This document shows positions 1,974 to 42,400 of a stretch of DNA of 49,374 bases, in pieces (within the stretch, counting starts at the first letter, position 1; each line of letters begins with the position of its first letter). The notes below the pieces were generated by a model. That model saw nothing but the letters and a program-made list of their open reading frames with translations. It was not told where the DNA came from and ran no database searches. Made by a program: the position numbers and the translations under genes. This DNA comes from Girardia tigrina (Eukaryota), in contig MQRK01232013.1 of NCBI GenBank assembly GCA_001938485.1, forward strand, positions 1-49,374, written 5' to 3'.

Positions 1974-2330
1974 GAAATTTTAAAGGTAACTAAAAAACAC
2001 TTCCTGCAAACAGACACTTCCCAATTATTAATTCTTCAAAGGAAATATTTGTAGCTGCATTTTCTCATAGGTCTTTCAGAAGTTCTGAACCGACTATATT
2101 TAATGAATTGTTTAAGAAATTCTGGGTTTTTAACTCTTTTAGGTTCCAAAAATTATCAAAATTGGATTTTCTATGCGATCTAAATATTTTTTTGAGTAAA
2201 AGCTATCCAAATATTATATATCTGCAAATCACATCATATCCGCATGATTAACATATTTACATAATAAGTACGTTGCCATTAACCTACCTGAAACTCTATC
2301 TGTTGACATCGTGGTAAAATATATAAATTA

Positions 2331-2360
2331 CTAGAAAAAGACGCGTCATATATGACGAGT
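2331..2360 (-). mobile_element. Helitron-type 3' terminus
   Basis: Palindrome CGTCATATATGACG (2344-2357) lies about 10 nt before a terminal CTAG|T on the minus strand. Confidence 0.5.
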
Positions 2361-2901
2361 GAACTGAATTTTCAACTTTGAAAGTTTCTGTTTTAATTTT
2401 TAAATCGTAATTATTATACTTTATTATTAATTGTTTCGAATTCTGCGTTGATTTAACAGTCAGTCAATTAAATTGGCGTAGAATTATAAAATAAAACGCG
2501 AAGGTTAATATGTCGAAATATAGAGTGGCTAAAGCCTTTTAAAGAATGGGGGTGTGAAGATAATTAATTTGTTATATTGATATTTATAGTAAATAATCAT
2601 AATCATATTATAAATTATTTTAAGGATCCAGTTTAATTTTATGAAATTCCTGATTTGTTTAAATAATCAGAATTGAGCAATTTTTTGAATTTAAATAAAT
2701 TTTGATAAACGAATTTTGTTTTTATTAGAAATGGAACATTCTTACAGATATTATTGAAAAAAATTTATCAGATTATCAGAACTTGATATTTTAATTGAAA
2801 ATTACTAAATTATCTTTTTTTGTTTGACTTTGATTTATGGAAACTATCATTTTTTAGATTTCAGTAATTTTTTTTGTATTTTCCATTCTTTTTATTAGAT
2901 T

Positions 2902-2936
<35 letters not shown>

Positions 2937-2942
<6 letters not shown>

Positions 2943-3143
2943 AAAAGGAAGGCCATTTTTGAATATTAAATTTATTCGCAATACATACGCGTTTCATCAT
3001 TTCAGCATCTTCAGTGCAATGAAATAAAGAGATTTAGTACTATTTATATAGCCGAAAACTATTACATCATTCGTCTCCAAAACATGCTTTTTTTCTTATT
3101 TTTTAAAAAAAAAGTATTTTAATGATATTTAAAAATATTTAAA
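2937..3143 (-). repeat. Left arm of a Penelope pLTR-like inverted repeat
   Basis: About 200-bp imperfect reverse complement of 4808-5014; reads TATA, hammerhead, AATAAA outward; partial tandem copy at about 3165-3235. Confidence 0.75.
2982..3018 (-). ncRNA. Minimal type I hammerhead ribozyme motif with weak stem II
   Basis: UGCA-CUGAAGA-U-GCUGAAAUGAU-GAAA-CGC-GUA-UGUA; stem I UGCA/UGUA, palindromic stem III ACGCGU. Confidence 0.6.
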
Positions 3144-3273
3144 TAGTAATTATGCTTTAAAGGATTAATTACTATTTATATAGTTGAAAAACTATTACAT
3201 CATACGTCTCAAAAACATGCTTTTTTTCTTTTTTAAGTTTGCCTAAACGTGCAAGGTGATTCATCTAATCATA

Positions 3274-4795
3274 TACTGGTCGTCAAAATGATTAACGCAA
3301 ACAACTTTTTTGTGATAATTATTTTTCCTTTGAAATATTTTTATTCTGCCAATATAAATTATTTTCCTTATTCAAGTACTTATTATTATATTAATANNNN
3401 NNNNNNNNNNNNNNNNNNNNNNNNNNNNNNNNNNNNNNNNNNNNNNNNNNGGCGGTTTTTTAAAACGTCAAAATGAATAACGCAAATTTATTTATTTAAT
3501 TATTTCATTGAAATTTGTTAATTCTATTAAAGTTTATATATTATTTAGGTGATACATTTTTTTAGATAAAAATATGAAACCAAAAGAAATTAAGGATATT
3601 GCTAAATCGTTACGTGAGACTGGAAAAACCTATAACGAAATCGGAAATATTTTAAATGTTACTCGACATGCTGCTCGTGGTTTATGTGTTAATATAGCAA
3701 GGTCTTATCCTAAGAAAACTGGTAGAAAAGAATTATTACAAAAAAGACAAATTGAAGATAAAACGATGCGTTTCAAGATTAATTGATGAAAAAACGAAAG
3801 TAAATTCCTCAAAAATTAAACAAGAATGCGAACTAAATGTATCTACGTCTACAGTACAACGTTGTATGAGAAAGATAGGTTATAGATATAACAAGGCGAA
3901 AACACAAATTGTTTTATCTGCGATGCATAAAAGAAAGAGAGCTGAATACATAACCAATTGGATTTCCAATAATCACCCATGGGAAATCACTGTATTTTCC
4001 GACGAAAAGAGATTCTGTATTGATGCTCCTGATTGCTGGTACTCATATAGCATAGATTCAGTCACATTGATTAGACCTAAGAGACAATGCGGGGGTGGAA
4101 GTTTAATGTTGTGGCTGATGGTCCTCACGAAAGGATTATTATCATATAGGGTTATTGAAGGAATTTTTAAAGCTAAGACTTACGAAGCCTTATTATGTGA
4201 CATGATTGTACCCATAATTAAGTTAAACCTAGGCTCGAATTACTATTTTCAAGAGGACAATTGTTCAATCCACAAATCAAATGCAATTAAGGCCTTTATG
4301 ATAAATAGTGATATACAAGTTCTAGAATGGCCATCAAAAAGTCCCGATATTAACATTGTAGAGGACATATGGAAAATGATTTCTGATACGGTTTATGACG
4401 GCGCATCCTTTAGAAATAAATCTGAATTACTGAGTGTCATTAATAAATGTATTTTTGAGTTAAATTCAAGTAAAAGGGATATAATAAAAAAGTTATATGA
4501 AACATTTCGAAAACGTTTAGCCATCATATTGTGTAAAAACGGTGCATTGTACAATAAAATGTAGCTTATGTTAATAAAATTAGTTTGCGTTATTCATTTT
4601 GACGTTTAAAAAAACCGCCTAAGTGATAAATATTCAAATATTATTTAAACAAATCATATAATATTAATAAAATATTAATATAATAATAAGTACTTGAATA
4701 AGGAAAATAATTTATATTGGCAGAATAAAAATATTTCAAAGGAAAAATAATTATCACAAAAAAGTTGTTTGCGTTAATCATTTTGACGACCAGTA
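3274..4795 (+). mobile_element. Tc1-family DD34E transposon, IR/DR type, near intact
   Basis: TA flanks; about 215-bp TIRs TACTGGTCGTCAAAATG, each with two CGTCAAAATGA(T/A)TAACGCAAA direct repeats. Confidence 0.95.
3574..4564 (+). CDS. Tc1 transposase with one frameshift near 3740-3752
   Basis: HTH N-terminus (ORF 3574) plus FSDEKRF, FQEDN and WPSKSPDINIVE (D-34-E) in ORF 3752-4564. Confidence 0.9.
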
Positions 4796-4807
4796 TATTA
4801 AAGTTTT

Positions 4808-5014
4808 TTAAATATTTTTAAATATCATTAAAATACTTCTTTTTTTAAAAAAAAAGAAAAAAAGCATGTTTTTGAGACGTATGATGTAATAGTTTTCAGC
4901 TATATAAATAGTAATTAATATCTTTATTTCATTGCACTGAAGATACCGAAATGGTGAAACGCGTTTGTATTGCGAATAAATTTAATATTCAAAAATCGTC
5001 TTTCTTTTCATTAT
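4808..5014 (+). repeat. Right arm of the Penelope pLTR-like inverted repeat
   Basis: Inverted copy of 2937-3143; TATATAAATA 4901-4910, hammerhead, AATAAA 4975-4980. Confidence 0.75.
4933..4969 (+). ncRNA. Minimal type I hammerhead ribozyme motif
   Basis: UGCA-CUGAAGA-U-ACC(GAAAU)GGU-GAAA-CGC-GUU-UGUA; intact core and stems I and II, palindromic stem III. Confidence 0.7.
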
Positions 5015-5894
5015 TATTAAAAATGCCATTATCAGTTCTATATATATTTATGTGTATATCCATGGAATTTAGAAACCTGTTTTTGAAGGCTTTTTACTCA
5101 ATCGATTTTCTTCAAACTTTGCACACTTACTCATTCTCGATGACAATAAATGATTATGTAAAAGTTTGATCGAAAAAAACTTTTTAAGATCCCAAAATGG
5201 GAAAAAACGAAAAAATCGGAGTTCCCGAACAATATTAATTGCAACATATCTGCAACAACTACTTATAAATTATAAATGGTTTATATTGTTTTTTTAATTA
5301 AAATTTTTTAAATTTTAATAACTTTGTTGGCAAAGTAGAGTTCTGTCTGCATAAAGAATGGATATAAAAAAATTAATTTTTTGATTAACTAGTTTGTAAT
5401 AAGTTTTTAACTATAATAACTATAACTATATAATTATTTTTATTAATTTTCATTTCTGTGAAACTGAATTGTAAACGGTATAGTTTTAAGTAAAAGTAAA
5501 TTACATTTTTAATTTTTTGAATAATTTTAGAGATTTAAGTAAAATTAATTACAATTTAATTTTTTTGGTTTTTGTGATTATGTTTTTAATATATATGATT
5601 ATTGGAAGTGACAATTTTTAAATTTTTAATTTTAATAAATGATCATTTAAATTTTTATTTTATTAATTTAAATGTCATTTAGTTGATGTTTGGTTATTAG
5701 GAAACTGATATTTTTTAGATTTAAATAAAAGACAATATTATTATAAAAATATTATTATATTAAATATTTAGAATTAAAATACGAAGGATCCCAAATTTGA
5801 TCGTCAAATCTTCATTTAAAATTGATAAAATAATGTAATTTCAATCAGAAATATAAGTAAAAATATAATAATAAATTTATCAAAATATTATTTA

Positions 5895-6149
<255 letters not shown>

Positions 6150-6340: not shown

Positions 6341-6515
6341 CTAAACAAATTAAGTATCACAACCATAATGCTCCACATAAATATTTACTATTAAATTTAG
6401 GACACTCTTAATTATTAGAAAAATTGGTTTTCAATGATCTATTCAACAAAATAAAATCGAAATATAAAATTTCTTTCATTTATCTTTTAATGTTTAAATA
6501 TGTTTTGACAAAATA

Positions 6516-8118
6516 CAATAGCGTGCAAAAGTATGTGGACAGTAAAAAAATCGCAATTTTCCAAATTAAGCCATGAGTTTATAAGGTGATAAGCTTAAAT
6601 TTTGACCAGATATGTAATTTTTTATAAGCTTTTACGCTAAATAAATCTATTTAAATTTTGTTAATATTTTTATAACGAACATTCAATTTTCAAGTTTTAA
6701 CCCTTGCAAAAGTCTGTGGACAATTCATAAAATACATTTTTTAAATAAAGTTAAATGCTAATTAAATTTAAGTATTAATTTAAATATTAATTTAAGTATT
6801 AATTTTAAGTATTAATCAAATAAAATAATATTTAGGATGACCTTAGTCCGGGAAATGTCAGAAGATATCAAGAAATTGATTGTTGATGCTTATCTTATAG
6901 GAAAAAAATCTTATAGAGAAATTGCATCGCTTTATAATGTTAGCAAATCTGCAGTTGGTAGTCTTGTCAAGAGATACAATCAGCGTCATGCCATAAACAA
7001 CAAGTCACGCAGTGGAAGGCCGAGAGTAACATCACAAAAAGATGATAGAATTTTTACAAGATTATTGAAATCGGACCCTCGAAAGAATGATGTTGAATGG
7101 AATGAAATAATGAAAAAGGACTATAATGTTAAGTGTAGTGTTGATACTACAAAACGTCGTCTTCGGAAAGCAAATTTATTTGGTCGTTGACCAGCAAAAA
7201 ACCTTTAATCTTGGTAAAGAATCGCAAGGCCCGAGTCAAGTGACAAATGAAAGTCTTAACTGGACGTCTAAAGAATGGTCAAAGGTTCTTTTTTCTGATG
7301 AATTGAAGTTTATGGTCTTCGAGAGTGATGGAATTAAGTATGTAAGACGACCTGTTGGTAAAATATCTGCTACCTACGGTAAAACATGGAGGTGTTAATG
7401 TGTTGGTTTATGGTGCGTTTAGCCGTGAGATGGTTGACCCAATAAATCGCATAGAGAGCATAATGGATCAATATATGTACAAGAATATAATCGGTACTAA
7501 AATGTTAACTTTTGCAAAAGATAAAATGCCTCGAGATTTGGTATTTCAACAGGATAATGATCCAAAGCACACAGCCAAAACAGTACAAGATTTTTTCAAA
7601 GCCAATAAATTACGTGTTTTGAAGTAGCCATCGCAAAGTCCAGACTTAAATCCTATTCAGCATATTTGGGAATACATTGATCGTCATTTGAAAGGCAATA
7701 AGCCCAAAAATAAGAACGAGCTCTACGAAAAAAAATCAAGATATTTGGAGCAGCATTCCTTTGCATGTGATTAACAAATTAGTAGACTCAATGCCTGATC
7801 GTTGTAAAGCAGTTGTAGCTTCAAAAGGTTATGCTACAAAATATTAATAAAATTTACAATTTTTATTAATTTTTGTCAAAAATATTTTCTTTTTTAATAA
7901 AATTTTGAATTGTCCACAGAATTTTGCACGGGTTAAAAGTTTAAAATTGAATGTTCGTTATAAAAATATTAACAAAATTTTAAAAAAAGATTTAGTTAGC
8001 GTAAAAGCTTATAAAAAGTTTATATCTGGTCAAAATTAAGGCTTGCTACCTTATAAACTCATGGCTTAATTGGAAAAATTGTGATTTGCTACAGTTCACA
8101 GACTTTTGCAAGCTACTG
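6516..8118 (+). mobile_element. Tc1-family IR/DR transposon with degraded transposase (about 6837-7847)
   Basis: TA flanks, about 210-bp TIRs with GCAAAAGT(A/C)TGTGGACA repeats; RSGRPR, FSDE, KHGG, FQQDNDPKH and SPDLNPI motifs broken by stops and frameshifts. Confidence 0.93.
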
Positions 8119-8329
8119 TAGATTTTAATTTTTTAAAAATAATTTTTAACAATTAATTATTTATAATGATCAAAATATAAAATTACTAATCAAGACCCGA
8201 AAATCACTCTCCTTTACCATCTTGTGAGTTCCATAACAGCTCCTAATGTGATCTAAAATAGAGCTTTTTCTACTTGATTGGGCATGTTCAGGACATATGT
8301 TCTGAAGATTAGAGAAGCAGGATCTTGTT

Positions 8330-13045: not shown

Positions 13046-13935
13046 AACTAGTAAATCAAAAAGTTTTTTCATATCCATTCTTTATGCGGACAGAACTCTA
13101 CTTGGCCAAGAGAATTTTTTATCTTTTGTAGAAGGGAAAAATACTATTACATTTACTTTTTAGCGCAATTTCCATACTGACAATTGCGATTATTAATTGG
13201 TTATTTCTGTCTGGATTGATGGATGGATGTGTGTCCGCAGCTTTAAGTCATATCTCCTCCTCAACGAAGCAATATCGAGGGCTAGTTCCAAAAGCAAATA
13301 TGTTAAGCAAGTTCGGAGGATGATTGTGGTCCAAAAAAATTCCCGGAATTCCTTCCTGGATTTCCCGGAAAAGCCAAAAAACCTCGAAAAAATGCAGTTT
13401 TTGGCCTATATCTCGGCAACCAGACCACTTNNNNNNNNNNNNNNNNNNNNNNNNNNNNNNNNNNNNNNNNNNNNNNNNNNNNNNNNNNNNNNNNNNNNNN
13501 NNNNNNNNNNNNNNNNNNNNNNNNNNNGTTCGGTCACAAAAAATTAATCATAGTCAAATACTGATATAAACGTTTTAATATTTGGGCACCGAATAACATA
13601 AGGAAATTGAGCTTAAATTGTCACTAGACTTTTTATTAACTTGTTTATTTTTACTTTTTTTGCATAATATAAACTATTTATAATTTATAAGTAGATCACT
13701 TTCAATTAATATTGTTCTGAAACTCCGATTTGGCCGTTTTTTTTTCATTCTTGGACCTAAGAAAATGTTTTTTTTATCAAATTTTCACATTATCATTTAT
13801 TGTCATCGAAAATGAGTAAGTGTGCAAAATTTGGAGAAAATTGATTGAGTAAAAAGCCTTCAAAAATAGATTCCTAAATTCCATTGATACATATATGTGT
13901 ATATAGAAAATTAGGTAATAAAAAGAATGGAAAAA
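13046..13935 (-). mobile_element. HINE-like family A, copy 2 (contains a family B insert)
   Basis: AACTAG...TCCATTCTTT at left, AAAGAATGGAAAAA at right; shared body with other A copies. Confidence 0.65.
13157..13645 (+). mobile_element. DINE-1/HINE-like family B, copy 1
   Basis: Sub-terminal inverted repeats GCGCAATTTCC / GGAAATTGAGC, short GGAT microsatellite, 3' end CTTGTT, inserted in a T-run; near-identical inverse copy at 34733-35148. Confidence 0.7.
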
Positions 13936-16133: not shown

Positions 16134-17460
16134 ACTAGTAAATCAAAAAAAAATTTTAATCCATTTTTATGCAACTAGAACTCTATTTGGCCAACAAGAT
16201 TTTTTTGTAATCTTTTGTAGAAGGGTAAATTACTATTACATTTTTTAATAAATTTTATATGTTATTAGTAGATATTTAAATCTTTTGTAGAAGGGAAAAA
16301 TGCCTTCAAAAATAGGTTTCTAAATTCCATGTTATATTATTATTAAGAATATTATTAAGAACATTTATATATTATTAAGAACATTTAGACAAGTCTCGTT
16401 TGAATTTTTATTACAATGACATTTAGAGTCATTAAGACTCTTAGAAAGTTTTTCATCGTTTGTCATAATTCTAATTGGTTTTCTTATTTCAATTTTTAAT
16501 CCTGATTATTCGAACAATTTTTCTAAGTCATTTTTTTAAAATATTTAACTTCTAAAAAATATTAATTAAAAATAATAATTTTAACCATTTCTCAATAAAA
16601 CTCAAAATAATAAAAATGTTATCAAATTATTAAAAATGCATTTAATTTAAATTTTACTAAAAAATATTAAACTTAATTTTAATTGTTAAATTAAAATATG
16701 AACTTATCAAATGATTATTTAATTATGTTCGAATAGTCAATCACTTTAAATTTAATAAAAAAAAATACCAATTTCCATCTGGGTGGGAGAATCACCATTC
16801 TAAATTCAATATACTTAAATCAACATACAGCATCCATACATTTACACGTTCAAACAATTTAAAATATTCCTCATATATATATATATATATNNNNNNNNNN
16901 NNNNNNNNNNNNNNNNNNNNNNNNNNNNNNNNNNNNNNNNNNNNNNNNNNNNNNNNNNNNNNNNNNNNNNNNNNNNNNNNNNNNNNNNNNNNNNNNNNNN
17001 NNNNNNNNNNNNNNNNNNNNNNNNNNNNNNNNNNNNNNNNNNNNNNNNNNNNNNNNNNNNNNNNNNNNNNNNNNNNNNNNNNNNNNNNNNNNNNNNNNNN
17101 NNNNNNNNNNNNNNNNNNNNNNNNNNNNNNNNNNNNNNNNNNNNNNNNNNNNNNNNNNNNNNNNNNNNNNNNNNNNNNNNNNNNNNNNNNNNNNNNNNNN
17201 NNNNNNNNNNNNNNNNNNNNNNNNNNNNNNNNNNNNNNNNNNNNNNNNNNNNNNNNNNNNNNNNNNNNNNNNNNNNNNNNNNNNNNNNNNNNNNNNNNNN
17301 NNNNNNNNNNNNNNNNNNNNNNNNNNNNNNNNNNNNNNNNNNNNNNNNNNNNNNNNNNNNNNNNNNNNNNNNNNNNNNNNNNNNNNNNNNNNNNNNNNNN
17401 NNNNNNNNTATATATATATATATATATATAGAAAGTAAGTTAATAAAAAGAATGGAAAAA
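16134..17460 (-). mobile_element. HINE-like family A, copy 3 (interrupted, with (TA)n gap)
   Basis: ACTAGTAAATC... left end; (TA)n and AAAAGAATGGAAAAA right end. Confidence 0.55.
16370..16870. repeat. Unclassified ~500-bp dispersed repeat, copy 1
   Basis: Same-orientation homologue at about 36126-36633 (shared CCAATTTCCATCTGGGTGGGAGAATCACCATTC). Confidence 0.8.
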
Positions 17461-18546
17461 TAAGAAAATTTAAGAAAAATAACATTTTTTGTTTGATAAT
17501 ATTTGCCCCATATTACGATTTATTAAACAAGGATTTCGAAATTATTCCCCGGGTAAAAATAATTTTTCTGAACCGATTTTCAAACCCTTCAATTAAAGCT
17601 TATACAATCTCAGTAGATATTGAATCTTGTTTGCGAATAATGGCCTGTTTCAAGTAAAAAAAGAGATGCTGGAGCATTCTTGAAAACATTATCCTTAAAA
17701 AAAATCAAAGAAAGAAATCGCAAAACGAAAATCAATGATAACATTTTTAAAATTGTTACTTTTAATTTTTTATGTATTTTTTCAACTTTATTATTCATTT
17801 ATAACGATTTAAATTTGATTTAAATTAGTCCATTTAAAAAAAACAGAGAATCTTCAAGCACCAATAACATAGAATCTTTAAATTAGCATAATTAAAAAGT
17901 GTTTCAAAAACGATAGAAAAAAAACGTCAGAGAAAATACCAAGACGGTTAGAACGGACGAAAATAAGAAAAAGTGTCGGTAGATCTTCGAATCGCAGCTC
18001 TTAACATTTAATCGAAAATTATTGAAGTGATTGACCATAAATGACCTGTTTTAGCAACTTTGATCTGAAGTTTACGGTTTATTTATATCCAACAGCCGCT
18101 CTCGAACCTGCATGAAATTATTAAAATCAATAGGAGCTGTTAGGATGGTCTTCACCAGTTGACTCCTGAGTAAGTGCATAAGCTTGTTGAACTCTGCAGA
18201 CAATTTCTCGCACATCCTTGGGATTTCCGTTTTGTGAAGCAAATAGCGACATGCAACGAATAATGGATTTATTTTTTTAATCCAAATATAGAAAATCTAT
18301 AGTTACATCCTGGTCAACCAGTTGTACCTGTTTCAGAACGTGACTAGTTTGATAACAAGATCATGTTTTGTGTTTGGTGGAACTTTGAAGGTTGGATGCA
18401 TTTTGAGTTATTTTATTTCGTATTTTCAACGGTTGTAAAGTATGCATGATGTTAAGAGCAAGCGATATATAGCAATGATTAATCGAAAACGAGTCTTATT
18501 ACAGCAAAACAATGCTTCTTCGCACACTACGGCTTAACAAAACTAA

Positions 18547-19825
18547 AACTAGTAAATCAAAAAAAATTTATATCCATTCTTTTTGCTGGGAGAACTAAAT
18601 CTTTTCCAAGAGAATTTTTTATGTTCTTTTGTAGAAGGCAAAATTACTATTACATTTATTAATATTTATTAATACTTTTTATAGGGTTTTTCGATCTTTC
18701 ATAAAATTCTTGCAACCATTAATAAAACTGATGCAATCATCAATAAAACTGTTGCAATCATTAATAATATTATTTTAATCATTAATAAACTTTGCAATTA
18801 CTTTTCAAATTACTCGATAATAAATAATAATAAAAATAATAAATAATTAAAGAACACATTTCTTGCATATGTTTTTAATGCACACTTGTTTTTTTAGTGA
18901 AACAGAAGATGATATAAAATATAAATATATAAAATACAATGAAAAGTAAAAATATGAAACATAAAAGACAAGAGAAAAAGCAATATTTATCACATAAAAT
19001 TTATGCCAGGGGATGGAATATCCATAGACATACATTTTGCCTTGATATCAAGAAGGCATAACTTAAAATTTTCTCCAGTTACAGCAAAATCGAATATTCT
19101 GTTATATATCATGCGATATTTGTTCCTTGCTGCCACAACCGAAATATTTCTGCTTCTTGCAACTGGAACAGATACATATGAAGAGTTTCCAATCAATGAA
19201 CTACATTCATTCGGACAATGAATTACAGCAAAACCCATTTTGTAAAGAAAAATAAATATTTTGTATTCCAAGATCGATTCTAATTCTTGAAATCTAGCTG
19301 CATATATCTTTTTTCTTTTGTTGTCTCTCTGTTTCTTATTTCTGGGATGGGTAACAAGCATTTTAAAGAATATATAATTTTGTTTACTAATTGTTTGTAG
19401 TTTCACATTTTTATTCAATTTTCTATCATGATGAATTATTTATTATCGAGTATTTTGAAAATTAATTGTTGAAATGATTAAAATAATTTTATTAAAGATC
19501 GCAACAGTTTTATTAATTTTTGCAAAACTTTTATTAAAGATCGAAAAACCCTATATCTTTACTTTTTTGTGTAATATAAACTACTTATAATTTAAAGGTA
19601 GATCTTTTTCAATTAATATTGCTCGGGAACTCCGAATTTTCCGCTTTTTCCTATTTTGGGACCTTAAAAAGTTTTTTTTTCGATCAAATTTTCACATAAT
19701 CATTTATTGTCATCAAAAATGAGTAAGTGTGCAAAGTTTGAAGAAAATTGATTGAGTAGAAGGCCTTCAAAAACAGGTTTCTAAATTCCATGGATACATA
19801 TATCGAATAAAAAGAATGGAAAAAA
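18547..19825 (-). mobile_element. HINE-like family A, copy 4 (contains the IS630-like insert)
   Basis: Both termini present; body resumes near 19557. Confidence 0.65.
18684..19551 (-). mobile_element. IS630/Tc1-superfamily deletion derivative
   Basis: TA flanks, long TIRs GGGTTTTTCGATCTTT; ORF 18990-19418 with MGFAV..G..VPVARSRNISVVAA motif reminiscent of IS630-like DDE transposases. Confidence 0.75.
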
Positions 19826-20094
19826 TAAGATCTGGCATTTGATATGTTGCCCGACTCCACTTATAATTCCCCCTTGCTCCGTCAGATTTTTATTTGTTTT
19901 GATCAATGATTCACTTTTGGCGTGGTTGAAACTTTTGAACAGCTGATAATGTTGAAATTAGATGTAGATATTTCTTTGTTTCCAAAGATCAGGCCTCGTA
20001 TCCCATTGGGATAGAAGAGAGAAATCATACTTTGTCGAATAAATAAATAATTTTACGTTTATTGAATGTCAACTTAATTAGCTTGATTGAATCA

Positions 20095-21390
20095 TTAGGT
20101 TGAGGAATAAGTTCCCGCCGTTTTTTGAATTTTTAATCAATTTAATATTTAAATCAAATTTTTTGATGTAATGTTATATGTTATTTGAAAGTTATTATTT
20201 TGCTCTAAAAAATGGTGTATTTTGTTTTTTTATTCAGATAAATTTTTGTCGATTTTTAGACCATTGAAATGGAGTGTCAAGTCGACAAAAATGAGCATTT
20301 CCGACACCATCTATTCTTTGCATATAATCGAGGCGCCAAAGCCGCAGACGCTGCCCGAGAGCTTTGTGCTGTATACGGAGAAGGTGCTATAGCTGATAGA
20401 ACTGCTCGTGATTGGTTCGCAAAATTTAAAATTGGTAATTTTGACCTCAAGGATGCACCTCGTTCAGGACGACCAAATGAATTCGATGAAGAGCGTTTGA
20501 ACAAACTTTTGCATGAAGACGCGCGTCAAACCACTCGAGAATTGGCGGAACAAATGGATTGTGATCAAAAAAACTGTCGTGAACCACCTGAAATCAATGG
20601 GAAAAGTTCAAAAATGGGAGCTTGGGTCCCACATCTTTTGACCGAAAACAACAAAAACCAGCGATCCACAATTTCGGCGAGTTTGCTTGTCCGTCATCGC
20701 TCTACTCACGGCCATAAGCAACAATTTCTTTATCGCATTGTAACGGGTGATGAAAAATGGTGCCTGTACGTCAACATAAAATAGCGCAAAGAATGGCGTA
20801 GCCGAGAAGAACAATCGACACCGCGAGCAAAACAGGATTTTCATCCACGATAGACAATGCTATGCGTTTAGTGGGGTTGGGAAGGGATTATTCATTATGA
20901 ATTGCTTCCTCGAAACCAAACAGTGAACGCAGAACTTTATGTTCAACAGCTGCATAGACTCAACGCCGCTATAAGACAAAAACATCCGGATCGATAATAT
21001 GGCGTTATTTTGCAACACGATAATGCACGTCCTCATATTGCCAGAATGACAAAAGAAGCCATTCAAACGCTTGGTTGGGAAGTGTTACCGCACCCTCCGT
21101 ATTCACCTGACTTGGCTCCATCTGATTTTCATCTTTTCCGTTCNNNNNNNNNNNNNNNNNNNNNNNNNNNGTTCAACAATGATGGAGAACTGCAAGTTTG
21201 GTTGGCTGAATTCTTCGAGTCAAGACCGGGCGATTTCTACCAAAGAGGCATTGAAAAACTCGTTGAACGTTGGAAAGAAGTCGTGAACAATGGCAGAGAT
21301 TATATTTGTGATTAATTTGTAGTAACTTTTTTGTTAAAAAATAAAATTTTAATTTTTCAAAAAACGGCGGGAACTTATTCCTCAACCCAA
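20095..21390 (+). mobile_element. Full-length mariner (DD34D), transposase pseudogene 20269-21315
   Basis: About 30-bp TIRs TT(A/G)GGTTGAGGAATAAGTTCCCGCCG; [20 protein letters not shown] and [13 protein letters not shown]; frameshift and stops. Confidence 0.95.
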
Positions 21391-26641: not shown

Positions 26642-27818
26642 TTAGGGTGAACCAAAAGTCTTTTCGTATTTTTTATTAAAAATTTAAACATAATTTTACA
26701 ACAAATAAAAAACATTTAAGTTTCAAAATAAAGGCCATTTGAATCTATAGCTTGAACCCATCTATGGGCAAGTTGTGCGATCCCACTACGGTACAAATCC
26801 TTGCTCTTAGAAGCGAAGAACTGGTGACACCCGTTTTCGACCTCGGCCAGATTATTGAAGTTGCGACCACGAAGAAAGTGTGCCATACAGCGGAAAAGGT
26901 GGTAGTCGGATGACGCAAGATCCGGACTATACGCTGGGTGTGGAAGAAGTTCAACAGCGTCGAAATTTTTGATTTTTTCCTTTGTTTGTTTGGTGGTGTG
27001 CGGTTTTGCATTGTCCTGTTGTAGAAGAATTCGCTTTCGTTTGATCAGAGCGGGGTATTTCTCGCCAAGTGCCGCATACATTCGGTCCAGTTGGGCGCAG
27101 TAAATGTCAGCGTCGTTGGTACGACCATTTGGAACCAGCTCGAAGTGAATCACACCTTCGAAATTACACCAAACACACAAAAGTGCCTTCCTTAAGAAAC
27201 GATCTCGTTTCGCTACCGATTTCGCCATTTGTCCGGGGTCCAACCATTGATTTTGTTGGTCTGGATTACTGAAGTAAACCCACTTTTCATCGCAAGTTAC
27301 AATTCGACGGATGAAACGNNNNNNNNNNNNNNNNNNNNNNNNNNNNNNNNNNNNNNNNNNNNNNNNNNNNNNNNNNNNNNNNNNNNNNNNNNNNNNNNNN
27401 NNNNNNNNNNNNNNNNNNNNNNNNNNNNNNNNNNNNNNNNNNNNNNNNNNNNNGTGCATTGTCTCCGAGGTCAATGTCGCCTTCGTTGAACCTTTTGAAC
27501 CAATTTTGTGCAGTACGATTTGAGACCACATTATCGCCTTCAACTTCGCATATCTTCTTTGTTGCTGTAGTTCCGTTTAAGCCCTGTTTCCAGTAATGGC
27601 GTAAAAGAACACGAATTTCAAAATTTTCTATGATTTTTCTGAAAGATCATAAAAATTATATTAACGATTAATTAGAAGTTTTAATATATATTGAGATAGA
27701 GCAGTTCAAGAGCTTTAAAAACATATAACACATGTATATAAAATATCTTTATTTGGTAATAAGAAACAACTGAACAAATAGACGTAGAAAATACGAAAAG
27801 ACTTTTGATTCACCCTAA
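26642..27818 (-). mobile_element. Mariner (DD34D) with assembly gap
   Basis: TA flanks, TIRs TTAGGGTGAA(C/T)CAAAAGTCTTTTCGTATTT; TCDEKW, QQDNAKPH and YSPDLASSDYHLF; start codon appears mutated to ATA. Confidence 0.95.
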
Positions 27819-31469: not shown

Positions 31470-31990
31470 AGTGAACCAATACATATGGTTTCTCTTTTGA
31501 ATATTTTCAAGCCATGAGAGTGGTTAGTAATCTGTTTGTTCAATAAATTTCCGACTATAAATATAATAATTAAATTGTTCGATTACATGCATAACAGCGT
31601 AAAGTTCATTTACAATAGCGGACCCCCTTTGTAAGTCTATCAAATTCTTTAATCTGGACGCTAATAGATTTTCCTTCTCATCGTGGACTTCAACTAAAAC
31701 TGCTCCTACTACGTAATTAGATGGATTTGTTTGTATATAAAGGGGCTTCTCATGATCGGTAATTTTCAGTGCAGAAAACGCTGTAATTATTTTCTACAAT
31801 TTTGAAAACCTATTTCTCATCTGCTCAACCATATTAATTTATCAGTCTTATTTTAGCAGATCAGTTAATTGAGCACTGATTTCGGAAATATTTGGTATGT
31901 GACTTCTGTACTAATTAATTAGTCCGAGAAATTCTCTTATTTGTCTTTTAGTTTTGGGTTTTTCAGATTTAATGTTTTCGGAATTTCAAA
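31470..31990 (-). mobile_element. Ty3/Gypsy pol remnant (RT end to RNase H)
   Basis: PKTKRQIREFLGLIN*YRSHIPNISEISAQLTDLLK, QTNPSNYVVGAVL, ELYAVM, RKFIEQTDY*PLSWL. Confidence 0.85.
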
Positions 31991-36865: not shown

Positions 36866-38120
36866 TAGGCTGTCCCAAAAGTCCTCAGGTGACCTTTAAA
36901 AACACACTAATATTTTATTAAATTTAACCAAATTTGGACTGAATATTATTCAGACTGTCATAAATACTGTGTTAAAATTTCAAAGCATAAAATTTGAAAC
37001 TTACCAAAAAAATAATATTATTAACCAACAAAATTAGATGCAGCGAATTTAAAAATTTATTTTAAAAATTTCATAAGCAACATATTCACCATTGTTGTCA
37101 ATAACCAACTGACAATAGTTAAAAAGTTTATCTAGTTGATTTTTTAATGTTTCTGTTGATAAAGAATTAAAAAAGAATTTACAAGCTTCTTCAATTTCTT
37201 CATGTGATTTGAAAACATGATTTTTACAACTTTTCTTCATTTTTGAAAACAAGAATCTGTCACACAGATTAAAATCTGGACTATAGGGCGATTGATAAAT
37301 TTTTTCAATTTTTCTTCTTTCAAAAAAGAGTTGTTTCTTTGCTAGAATGAGGTCTTGCATTATCATGCCACCACTTAAGTTCATTTAGCTTGATGCTGTT
37401 AGATCTAAGTTTCCCCCATTTTTCACCGGTGTCATGAACAAAGTTCACATACGCCTCGGAATCAATCTTGGTACCATATAGCAGTGCCTTTACACTAAAA
37501 CGTTTGTTGCAGGTAAAGGTTACGAAAACAAGAGATTTTTTATCAGTCATTGACGATGGCTTTATCACTTTTGGTGAACAGCATTAGAATGAATCCAAAC
37601 TTTGTGATCTTCTTTCTTTCCTCTACCTTGGAAAAAGACCCATGTCTCATCCTCGATCGCTATGTTGGAATATGCTTCATCACCCATCTGTGAAATTACA
37701 TAGTGTATATGCTTTGCAGTGTTAATGCGTTGTTGTTTATTAGCAGCAGAAAGTTCGTGAGGGACCCAAACAGAGCAAACATTTTTGTAATGAAGTTTTT
37801 TACGCAAAATTTTGTGGACTGTATTTTTGCCTAAAGAAATAAAGAACGCAAAGACGCATTTGGAGCTTCATCAATCACTTTTTGACTGCTTTAATCTTTT
37901 TATCGTCTATTAATGACGGCCCGCCACTTCTTGATGAATCGTCGAAGGACGTCCGCTTTTCTTTATTTTTAAAATCAGTCAACCATTGTTGAATAGTTTT
38001 CAGTGCTGAGTGATTTGCGTCTTCCCATGCCTGCTGAAGTTGCTGAAGAATTTCTGAAGCAGAGAATCATCTTTTACTTTGAGTTAGAACAAAAAAACGT
38101 TGTTAGACATAAATAGACAT
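36866..38120 (-). mobile_element. Mariner-like transposase pseudogene, one TIR only
   Basis: WVPHEL, EDETW, WHDNARPH and QSPYSPDFNLCDRFLF over three frames; partner TIR not found. Confidence 0.85.
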
Positions 38121-39729: not shown

Positions 39730-42400
39730 TGCAAACAATTTGGGTATACTTCCGTACAGACCCAAGCAAAAAAATAGAACAAAATATAAAAATTATCAAA
39801 ATTCCAGGAAAAATATTTTAAAAATTTATATAAAATGTTATTTAGGTCACAAAATCTCAAGGTAAAATATGAGTGGATTATGTAATCACTGGCTTCACTG
39901 ACTTATTCTAGAAAATATTCGACTTAATTTAGAAAATATTTGTACCACGATTTCAGAATGAAATAAATGTTTAATAATTTGATTCATATTTTTAGGTATG
40001 CTTAATATATTTTATAAATAATTTTTTATATTTAAAATTGAATATTTTTTGGATTTTCTGTTTTTTTAAATTATTTTCAGTTAATTTTTCTATGCAAAAA
40101 TATGATAAAATAAAAGTTTTAAAAAATGACACAAAAAATATACAGTGAAACCTCTCCATAAGGTACACCCCATATAATATACGGAAATAATTTTTTGTAT
40201 TTCACTGCATAAAATGACTTGGAATCTTCTCCACGTTGGGTACATTACCATAAGGTACAGTTTTAATAAGAAAATCAGAAAATTTTTGTTATTATAACCC
40301 TTGTTTTTTATTTTAAAAATCGTTTTAAATCATTTGTTTAAATAATATTTATTTAAAAGCATTTTTTAATTTTAAAAATATCCGGGGGTCACACGGAAGA
40401 TTGGCCTTTTTAACATCCATAAAAATGAGCAATTCCTCGAAAACGATTGAAAGAAAAAAGATAGATTTGACAACAAAGATAAAAATCATATAATTTGTCG
40501 AGAAAAGAAACAGTATAAGGTTTGCTGTAAATGAATTCGCTGTGTCGAAAGGCACAGTTCAAAAAGCATTGGAAAAGAAAGAAATTATAATGGCAGAGCT
40601 AGAGTCGGGAAGGTCGCTAAAAATAGCAAGAATAATTAAACAAAGCGACGTGAGCATTATTTTATGGATATGGTTTGCCAATGCTAGATCATTGGGTTAT
40701 CCAATAAGTGGTCCTATTTTACAAGAAGACTCGCTAAAAATAGCGAAAAAAATGATAGTGAAGACGGGACATTTATGGCATTTGAAGAGTGGCTTCAAAA
40801 GTGGAATTTAGGAATAATATTAAAAGTTAAAAAAATTGCGGGGAATCTGGTGCAGCTGATATTAAAACTGCTATAGAAGGGAAATCAAATTTAATGTTGT
40901 TTTATGAAGATTATGATTTTGCCGACATATTCAATATGGATGAAAGTGAATATATATTTAGATTCTTACCGGATACGACATTGTCTAGATCTAGAGATAT
41001 TTGTAAAGGTGGAAAACATGCTAAAGACAGATTAAAAATTGTTTTAACGTGTTCCGTATTGGGTGAAAAACTCCCTCCAATAATAGGGAAATCAAAATTA
41101 CCTAGATGTCTAAGAAATATTGATTTGTCTAAGCTAAACGTTAAGTATTGGTGAAATTCAAAAGCCAGGATGACTACAACCTTATTTAATTCGTATCTTA
41201 GAGAATTGAACTACAATTTAACCAATGTGTTACAACCACTTGATGCTGGGATCATAAGGAGTTTAAAGGCATATTGCAGAAAGTATCAGATTTTAACTTT
41301 ATTAAAAAAATTCAAGATAAAGTGCATGTATCTGAACTCGTAAAGAAAATGAATATTTTTGATCCGATTTAATTTTGTCTAATGCTTGGAATGATATAAA
41401 GCCTGAAACTAAACAGAAGTGCTTTGAAATTGTGGATTTTCAAAAAATACTGATATCGCTAAATTTGATTTATATGAAATAGAAAATCAAGTGAATGAAC
41501 TTTACGAAATAGCAGAAAATATTGGGATACAGGGTAAAAATTTGATATTCGAAGAAACTATACCAGAATTTGAAATGCCGGCGGTTGAAGATTTACGAGA
41601 CGCTATAATTGAAGAGTTTTATGATGATTATCCTATTGAAGAAGATGATGTGATCGAACCGGAGAATGTGGAAATAAATAATAATATCAATGGAATTCTA
41701 ATATCTAATGACGAGGCAATAAATTGTTTGACGAAATTAATAACTTATGCAAAAGAAAAACATATGTATGAAGTGGAACTAAATTTGTTAAAAATGAAAC
41801 AGGATGTTATTTCTCAACAAACGAAGAATTTGAAACAAAAAATCAATTACATATTTATTATAAAAAAAATAAATGTTGATTGATGCTTTAATTATTCCAT
41901 TTTATTTTAAAATTTTACATCTTTTCTCTAAACATTTTTTAAAAAAAATTATATTACTATCATTTGGTGAAATCTATTTATATTCCAAAAAAATATCAAT
42001 TGATTTTCTTGTAAAATTTAATAATAAGTAAATATAATATTTTTGATCTATAATTTAATTTAACATTGCTTTTTAATTCTAGAAAAAATTGCACCAAAAA
42101 CTTTATGTTACATTCTATATAAGGTACACCAATTCATAAGGTACATTTTTGAAATATTTTCTTGACAAATAAGGTATACCTTATGGAGAGGTTTCGCTGC
42201 ATATAAAATAAGTCGGAGAAGCTAGTTATTACATAACCAATATGGGTATTTTTCATTAAGGTTAGGTTACTTAAAAAAAATTTAAATTAATTTTTAAAAA
42301 AATTTAAATTATTTTTCCTGGAATGCTGATAATTTTTTATATGTTGTCATATTTTTATTTTCGCTTGTACCCGTATATATGTATGCTCTAAAATCGTTTT
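39730..42400. mobile_element. Old long-TIR foldback/MITE containing the pogo element
   Basis: About 39730-39910 is a diverged inverse of about 42205-42400 (ATTCCAGGAAAAATA; TTATGTAAT-ACT-GCTTC--GACTTATT). Confidence 0.55.
40143..42199 (+). mobile_element. pogo/Tigger-like transposon with degraded transposase (about 40425-41883)
   Basis: TIRs CAG(T/C)GAAACCTCTCCATAAGGTA; CENP-B-like GYPISGPILQE, IFNMDES, KGGKHAKDRL, IGKSKLPRC and LQPLDAGII. Confidence 0.93.

Follow-up and report, generated by a model that had tools for sequence, protein, structure and literature searches.

A probable inverted remnant of a Penelope-like element, with opposite-strand hammerhead motifs, at the planarian Vps34 locus

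The stretch analysed here comprises 49,374 nucleotides of the planarian Girardia tigrina (NCBI GenBank assembly GCA_001938485.1, contig MQRK01232013.1, positions 1 to 49,374 of the forward strand) and is referred to below as the window. It is AT-rich and full of transposon remnants, and it carries most of the gene for Vps34 (PIK3C3). Our subject is an insertion at about 2939-5038 in which two arms, each similar to the pseudo-long terminal repeat (pLTR) of a Penelope-like element (PLE), lie head to head. Both arms contain a minimal hammerhead ribozyme motif, and a Tc1-family transposon separates them. An initial annotation of this DNA had offered two readings of the unit: an inverted Penelope remnant, or a non-autonomous foldback element that makes self-cleaving RNA from both strands.

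Layout and boundaries of the insertion

The locus is made up of the following features:

2876-2938, plus strand: left part of host repeat X; its final (TA)n tract (2906-2938) is the target site
2937-3143, minus strand: left arm L, a pLTR-like copy that reads leftward and shares 92.3% identity with the right arm across 208 nt
3140-3178, no strand assigned: 13-bp inverted repeat, with a loop of 13 nt, where L meets the partial copy
3164-3234, minus strand: partial copy B, running from the A-tract to just beyond the TATA box, without a ribozyme
3235-3275, plus strand: unique spacer of 41 nt, with no second copy within the window
3276-4793 (ends ±2 nt), plus strand: Tc1-family DD34E transposon at a TA target, with terminal inverted repeats (TIRs) of ~225 nt that include a run of N
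4807-5014, plus strand: right arm R, a pLTR-like copy that reads rightward
5015-5038, plus strand: tail, a one-sided extension of 24 nt on the right arm only, with no counterpart in L
5039-5287, plus strand: right piece of host repeat X, beginning with TATATATA
5895-6149, minus strand: last exon of Vps34, a PI3-kinase, found in the window; its best relative, at 98% identity, bears the name Dugesia japonica Vps34

The ~200-bp inverted arms, the partial copy (first placed at 3165-3235) and the Tc1 within the element had all been described in the initial annotation, and all three were recovered. L and R differ at 16 sites, and both arms present the same order of elements: an A-tract, TATATAAA (a TATA box), stem I, CUGAAGA-U, a 3-bp stem II with a 5-nt loop, GAAACGCGU-H and the second strand of stem I. 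Once the Tc1 is discounted the insert measures ~580 bp, somewhat more than the ~550 bp first given. That it holds no long open reading frame (ORF) was correct, the longest stop-free frame having 57 codons.

The left and right flanks are the two halves of one unrelated, older host repeat, X. X copies near 13.9k, 17.4k and 19.8k have ends that match the left piece, and the score of this piece against each of two X copies was reached by none of 2000 shuffles. An uninterrupted copy of X (13934-13666) aligns across the emptied site with 79.5% identity over 288 nt, which fixes both ends of the insert and also the tail. Repeat X resumes at 5039, directly after the tail, and the insert thus extends ~24 nt beyond 5014 on the right side only. 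The tail itself has no similarity to the left flank or to X (1737 and 1849 of 2000 shuffles scored equally high), and its reading as a target duplication or as a part of X was rejected on these scores. The target was an AT-rich microsatellite, namely the (TA)n tract of X. Repeat X is dispersed and unclassified, and close to one of its ends it carries a (TA)n tract whose length varies; pieces of it, given here without strand, lie at 5039-5287, 13666-13934, 19554-19830, 17409-17472 and 16297-16331.

These boundaries bear on the possibility that the unit is a miniature inverted-repeat transposable element (MITE) or foldback DNA transposon with ~208-bp TIRs, in which the ribozyme would be a passenger. 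Long inverted ends, a TA-rich target, the lack of an ORF and the many Tc1/mariner remnants in the window would all suit such an origin. However, the inverted arms and the insertion ends do not coincide, and this one-sided 24-nt extension points to a Penelope tail and away from a MITE. In addition, a partial direct copy and a junction palindrome are not MITE features, and the arms do not end as the local Tc1 does. We consider a DNA transposon origin extremely improbable.

The Tc1 in the unit centre encodes its transposase in two frames (3553-3783 and 3698-4561), with Pfam matches to DDE_3 and HTH_Tnp_Tc3_2. It entered the unit later, and its outer TIRs, with 0 differences over 123 nt, fit an age younger than that of the arms. 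Within its left TIR lies a run of 54 N (3397-3450), opposite 53 nt in the right TIR. This run sits between the arms, so an assembly artefact has to be weighed, in which the arms were joined wrongly at this point. In its favour, the TIRs are 100% identical in their outer parts beside the run and ~90% identical in their inner parts, and short-read assemblies reportedly have trouble with PLE inversions (PMC8557442). Against this, the gap is equal in size to the stretch opposite it in the right TIR, the halves of X flank the unit in register, and the 16 differences between the arms mean that these are not a single collapsed copy. We give a wrong join almost no credence.

In the overlap shared by all three copies (~71 nt), B differs from R at 2 sites and from L at 8, and L differs from R at 6. 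B therefore looks like an inverted copy of R, and a difference as low as 2/71 is what is expected if one was copied from the other. The greater divergence of L suggests that L came from a slightly different template or from an earlier insertion. Of the private changes in this overlap, 6/8 fall on L (p = 0.02 for one named copy, ~0.06 for any of the three). The spacer adds 13 open codons (3237-3275), whose frame, with the Tc1 taken out, closes at a stop at 4799-4801; these are possibly the last codons of the parent ORF, the sole hint being a Leu-Asn motif of PLE endonuclease ends. The inverted repeat at the L/B junction may be a scar of self-priming or template switching, and palindromes at inverted junctions have been described (PMC3846280).

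Exons for aa 1-805 of the 880 aa of Vps34 map from 43025 to 5895 on the minus strand, and aa 806-880 were not found in the window. By this exon order the element is in the Vps34 intron that follows exon 5895-6149, provided that the gene continues to the left of the window. Vps34 spans more than 37 kb (5895-43025), and its introns are filled with transposons. A second Tc1-like element at 6514-8120 has TIRs of ~235 nt with 85% identity and a broken transposase. Remnants of mariner/Tc1 and pogo-like (HTH_Tnp_Tc5, DDE_1) transposases lie at 20260-21315 (+), 26716-27646 (−), 37052-37867 (−) and 40494-41340 (+). A fragment of an RNase H of LTR-retrotransposon type (31527-31793, −; Pfam RT_RNaseH_2, E 2e-11) is 26 kb away and unrelated.

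Hammerhead motifs, promoter-like signals and predicted folding

The arms carry the following ribozyme and promoter-like features:

4923-4980, plus strand: right minimal type I hammerhead, core start 4937, predicted cut after 4965 (GUU)
2971-3028, minus strand: left minimal type I hammerhead, core start 3014, predicted cut after 2986 (GUA)
4901-4908 and 4929-4933 (A = 4931), plus strand: TATATAAA and initiator (Inr)-like TCATT of the right arm, 20 nt apart
3050-3043 and 3022-3018, minus strand: TATATAAA and Inr-like TCATT of the left arm, a putative promoter
4951-5038, plus strand: ATG in loop II whose frame stays open for 21 codons as far as the arm end and for 29 as far as the end of the tail

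The right hammerhead consists of an interrupted 13-bp stem I, CUGAAGA-U, a 3-bp stem II (A-U, C-G, C-G) and the palindrome ACGCGU. In the left hammerhead the core is intact, but stem II reads G-U, C.A, U-G, with a C.A mismatch, and the two are not twins, as they had been called. The predicted cut positions agree with those first proposed for both strands. The earlier order of TATA box, core and AATAAA also holds as sequence; AATAAA (4975-4980), however, is the 3' strand of distal stem I, and since it pairs there a role as poly(A) signal is unnecessary.

To locate such motifs we used a descriptor modelled on the published minimal hammerhead (PMC4209133), with dinucleotide shuffles of the whole window as control. 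Under strict pairing only the site at 4937 matched in the window, and 0/300 shuffles did. When one stem II mismatch was allowed both 4937 and 3014 matched, and 1/300 shuffles gave any match. As expected, prokaryotic genomes gave 0 matches to a degenerate form of the core pattern.

In the folding model the right ribozyme, if trimmed tightly to 4923-4985, forms stem I with a probability of 0.78 and stem II with a probability of 0.92. Its stem I probability was at most 0.15 in all 24 constructs that reach 5014 or beyond, and at most 0.01 when the RNA starts at the Inr (4931). For the left ribozyme both stems had a probability of 0.00 in 24/24 constructs, and on this model it is probably decayed and inactive. 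A strand-swapped active homodimer of the right ribozyme was modelled at -19.5 kcal/mol, compared with a cofold minimum free energy (MFE) of -23.7 (4.2 lower) and with -14.6 for two monomers. The mixed dimer came to -11.1 kcal/mol and the left homodimer to -2.7, which is 24.5 above its cofold MFE; all these dimer energies are approximate and contain no tertiary terms. Each strand has one sense ribozyme, which makes a dimer in cis impossible, and in read-through RNA from either strand, Vps34 pre-mRNA included, 55-56 of the 58 ribozyme nt pair with the opposite arm. The modelling thus suggests that the right ribozyme could cut only in trans, in RNA without the opposite arm. As background, the metazoan PLE ribozymes published so far reportedly cut weakly even as dimers, and among Xenopus retrozyme dimers 8/9 of those tested are reported not to have cut.

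For Vps34 pre-mRNA, ~200 bp of double-stranded RNA would be expected from the arms, in addition to that from the Tc1 TIRs, and this may be a source of small RNAs or a substrate for editing. The decayed ribozyme is the one that is sense to the host pre-mRNA and the intact one is antisense, in this single case. We weighed whether selection acts against ribozymes in the sense orientation of Vps34 pre-mRNA and set the idea aside, as n = 1 and the foldback would hide the ribozyme anyway.

We next consider the foldback alternative, in which the inverted L-B-R unit would form a non-autonomous family that is mobile as a whole, served by PLE protein in trans and giving rise to self-cleaving RNA from both strands. 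In its favour, pLTRs alone can reportedly mobilise intervening sequence in trans in Adineta vaga, and the end position is the same for both arms. Between the arms, moreover, stem I plus core shows 0/45 differences versus 16/163 elsewhere (Fisher p = 0.026). This partition was made post hoc, however, and over the whole ribozyme the figures are 4/58 versus 12/150 (p = 1.0); selective conservation of the ribozyme between the arms was rejected because the partition had been chosen after looking. Further points against such a family are the misfolding of the left ribozyme in every construct, the long hairpin of the read-through RNA, which would bury each ribozyme, the asymmetric insertion ends and the irregular central junctions. 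A second copy of the unit was not seen in 49 kb, which is a weak test. The folding models make self-cleaving RNA from both strands, the second of the initial readings, unlikely, and we regard the foldback family as a whole as improbable.

The promoter-like signals overlap with the ribozyme. Of the 213 TATA-like sites in the window, 8 have such an Inr: the two arms account for 4 of these and a single (TA)n end for the other 4. The TCATT of the right arm sits inside the 5' strand of hammerhead stem I (4929-4936), and because the start site would be inside stem I, RNA from the arm's own promoter would be without most of this stem and stay uncut. The Inr inside stem I thereby offers a testable idea of why PLE hammerheads spare their own mRNA, the function of these hammerheads being called unclear in the literature. 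One may extend this to a promoter-coupled switch within a dispersed, non-autonomous Dugesia family whose units a PLE protein would mobilise whole and in trans, where Inr-started RNA remains uncut and read-through RNA is cuttable as a dimer. If true, this would amount to an on/off switch for PLE ribozymes and to a ribozyme element that folds into a hairpin and spreads through the introns of its host. We think this extension improbable. The frame that opens at 4951 is a candidate for the first ~29 codons of the parent ORF.

Origin of the insertion

Altogether, we consider it highly probable that the unit is a heavily 5'-truncated, inverted insertion of an endonuclease-bearing PLE, now reduced to pLTR pieces, in the planarian Vps34 intron. 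What was found agrees with a pLTR remnant: a minimal type I hammerhead with a palindromic helix III (on the left with one stem II mismatch allowed), a head-to-head inverted pLTR with a partial tandem copy, a tail at one end only, and an AT-rich microsatellite as target. The TATA-20-Inr spacing, the ATG that overlaps the ribozyme and the layout of two direct copies plus one inverted copy lend further support to the Penelope half of the initial annotation. As there is no Penelope ORF in the window, we infer the membership in PLEs and speak of a PLE-type pLTR remnant, without assigning it to a family or clade. No ORF for reverse transcriptase (RT) or GIY-YIG lies inside the insertion, which is hence not an autonomous endonuclease-bearing (EN+) PLE.

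Such an insertion could have come about as follows. A PLE RT/GIY-YIG protein, acting in trans, would have nicked the AT-rich (TA)n target. Reverse transcription would then have begun inside the RNA at two sites ~24 nt apart, one corresponding to the arm end (5014/2937) and the other to the tail end (5038), and would have halted after a few hundred nt. Self-priming or template switching may subsequently have yielded the head-to-head copy. The ribozymes, of a kind that such pLTRs normally carry, would be inherited pLTR parts, built for dimer cutting through ACGCGU. The element ends 49-73 nt downstream of the predicted cut sites, so the RNA that was copied would have been uncut. We lean only slightly towards one event over two successive insertions at the same spot; according to a review, new PLE insertions tend to land within or next to copies already present.

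The position of the ends also bears on whether solo monomers of a non-LTR retrozyme, a tandem-repeat element that forms circular RNA, landed here in opposite orientations. The type I hammerhead, the lack of an ORF and a unit of ~210-230 nt would be in line with this, and retrozymes are reportedly pLTR-derived and also found as monomers. There is, however, no head-to-tail pair of complete ribozymes of the kind called for by the working criterion of 10.64898/2026.07.22.740005, as B ends before the ribozyme. Furthermore, the ends do not fall at the cut site but at fixed distances of 49 and 73 nt beyond it, and the tail and the TATA-Inr layout are pLTR features. Retrozyme monomers are in our view a very unlikely source.

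Several observations weigh against an inverted PLE remnant. With Pfam, no Penelope RT or GIY-YIG domain was found in 249 of the 255 open stretches of the window that passed a complexity filter (out of 316 stretches of at least 45 aa; the 6 omitted are antisense to Tc1 transposases), and a regular-expression scan for motifs of RT and GIY-YIG returned a single match, which was unconvincing. At 24 nt the tail falls short of the usual 30-40 nt, and a target duplication of 8-10 bp, which is not present in every such insertion, is unreadable since TA repeats flank both sides. The excess of private changes on L fits poorly with a single event. An open frame from 4951 would arise by chance with p ~0.09, which is not significant, and the peptide predicted from it has no recognisable relatives: a search with 40 aa against a 5.8-billion set returned 1 candidate and none with E <= 10, one with 30 aa against a 1.84-billion set returned 0 matches, and ESM Atlas gave no relatives, each a weak negative in view of the short query. 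Rfam covariance models (cmscan on 2000-6000, 4900-5010 and the whole window), the check suggested at the outset, found no hammerhead and only chance matches below the gathering threshold; Rfam hammerhead models expect a fuller helix III. Finally, the pair G10.1-C11.1, which exceeds 80% in the consensus of PMC4209133, is absent from both ribozymes, with A-U on the right and G-U on the left, although A-U or G-U at this position does occur in PLE motifs listed there.

In a partial literature search, with Repbase and most subscription papers outside its scope, no description was found of a foldback ribozyme family or of a Dugesia Penelope family, and a term search of the supplement of PMC8557442 returned neither Dugesia nor Schmidtea. 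As an ordinary remnant the unit adds another case to a PLE insertion pattern already on record and is of little significance in itself.

Comparison with known systems

The matches to published pLTR and PLE layouts indicate that this architecture is already known. PMC8557442 describes PLE tails of 30-40 bp that are often present at one end only, inverted 5'-truncated copies that create flanking inverted repeats, and a bias towards microsatellites. Close in layout is Pen2a_Av, an EN+ Penelope of Adineta vaga with two direct 218-bp pLTRs and one inverted (PMC3846280). Its pLTR has TATATATA, 20 bp and an Inr-like TCACT, and contains the first 12 codons of the ORF, or 22 with the 31-bp tail; derivatives of Pen2_Av with internal deletions are flanked by inverted pLTRs (PMC3846280). 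The Girardia unit resembles these in its pLTR of ~200-220 bp (here 208), two direct copies with one inverted head to head, TATA-20-Inr spacing, one-sided tail, junction palindrome, AT-rich target and putative first ORF codons (~21-29 here) within the pLTR. It differs from Pen2a_Av in that the locus is without an ORF, the second direct copy ends before the ribozyme, the tail has 24 instead of 31 nt, no target duplication of 9-10 bp can be read, and the locus is split by a Tc1.

The ribozymes resemble the metazoan PLE minimal hammerheads (Cervera and de la Pena 2014; PMC4209133), which are of type I with a CUGANGA-H bulge and GAAAN-palindrome-NUH. Pairs of minimal hammerheads ~100-700 bp apart on opposite strands are reported there from S. 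mansoni and attributed to truncated PLEs; the paper also reports a second minimal hammerhead on the opposite strand at the 5' end of a truncated PLE. The alignment in the same paper contains a PLE-linked CUGAAGAU motif of the planarian S. mediterranea, and a C. briggsae motif with a 3-bp stem II, a 5-nt loop and GUU. Shared with these systems are the opposite-strand pair and the 3-bp stem II with 5-nt loop, as in C. briggsae; unlike them, the Girardia motifs have A10.1-U11.1 or G10.1-U11.1 instead of G-C, and a stem I of up to ~13 bp. The GAAACGCGU string was not found in supplement file 2 of PMC4209133, where the table prints GAAA separately. The unit also shares with non-LTR retrozymes (PMC7229834; 10.64898/2026.07.22.740005) that it is short, non-coding and probably pLTR-derived, with a type I hammerhead. 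It carries one ribozyme per strand, head to head, whereas retrozymes have at least two complete ribozymes in tandem on one strand.

With respect to the insertion process a further close system is Poseidon PAc of Anolis carolinensis, whose ORF begins inside the hammerhead and whose tail is bounded by two start sites of RT, with uncut RNA as the principal substrate (PMC11167929); more generally, pLTRs are described as including the ORF start (PMC3846280, PMC11167929). As in PAc, the ribozyme here overlaps the putative ORF start, the ends lie downstream of the cut, the target is AT-rich and the tail falls between two positions that would be RT starts. The two differ in the place of the ATG, which at the planarian locus precedes the predicted cut by 14 nt, in loop II, and in PAc is at the start of stem II (26 bp), and in the ends, at codons 21 and 29 here versus nt 111-118 of the ORF in PAc. 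As a clean worked case, the insertion would place two points at which RT started downstream of a ribozyme that had stayed uncut, in agreement with the in vitro result for PAc.

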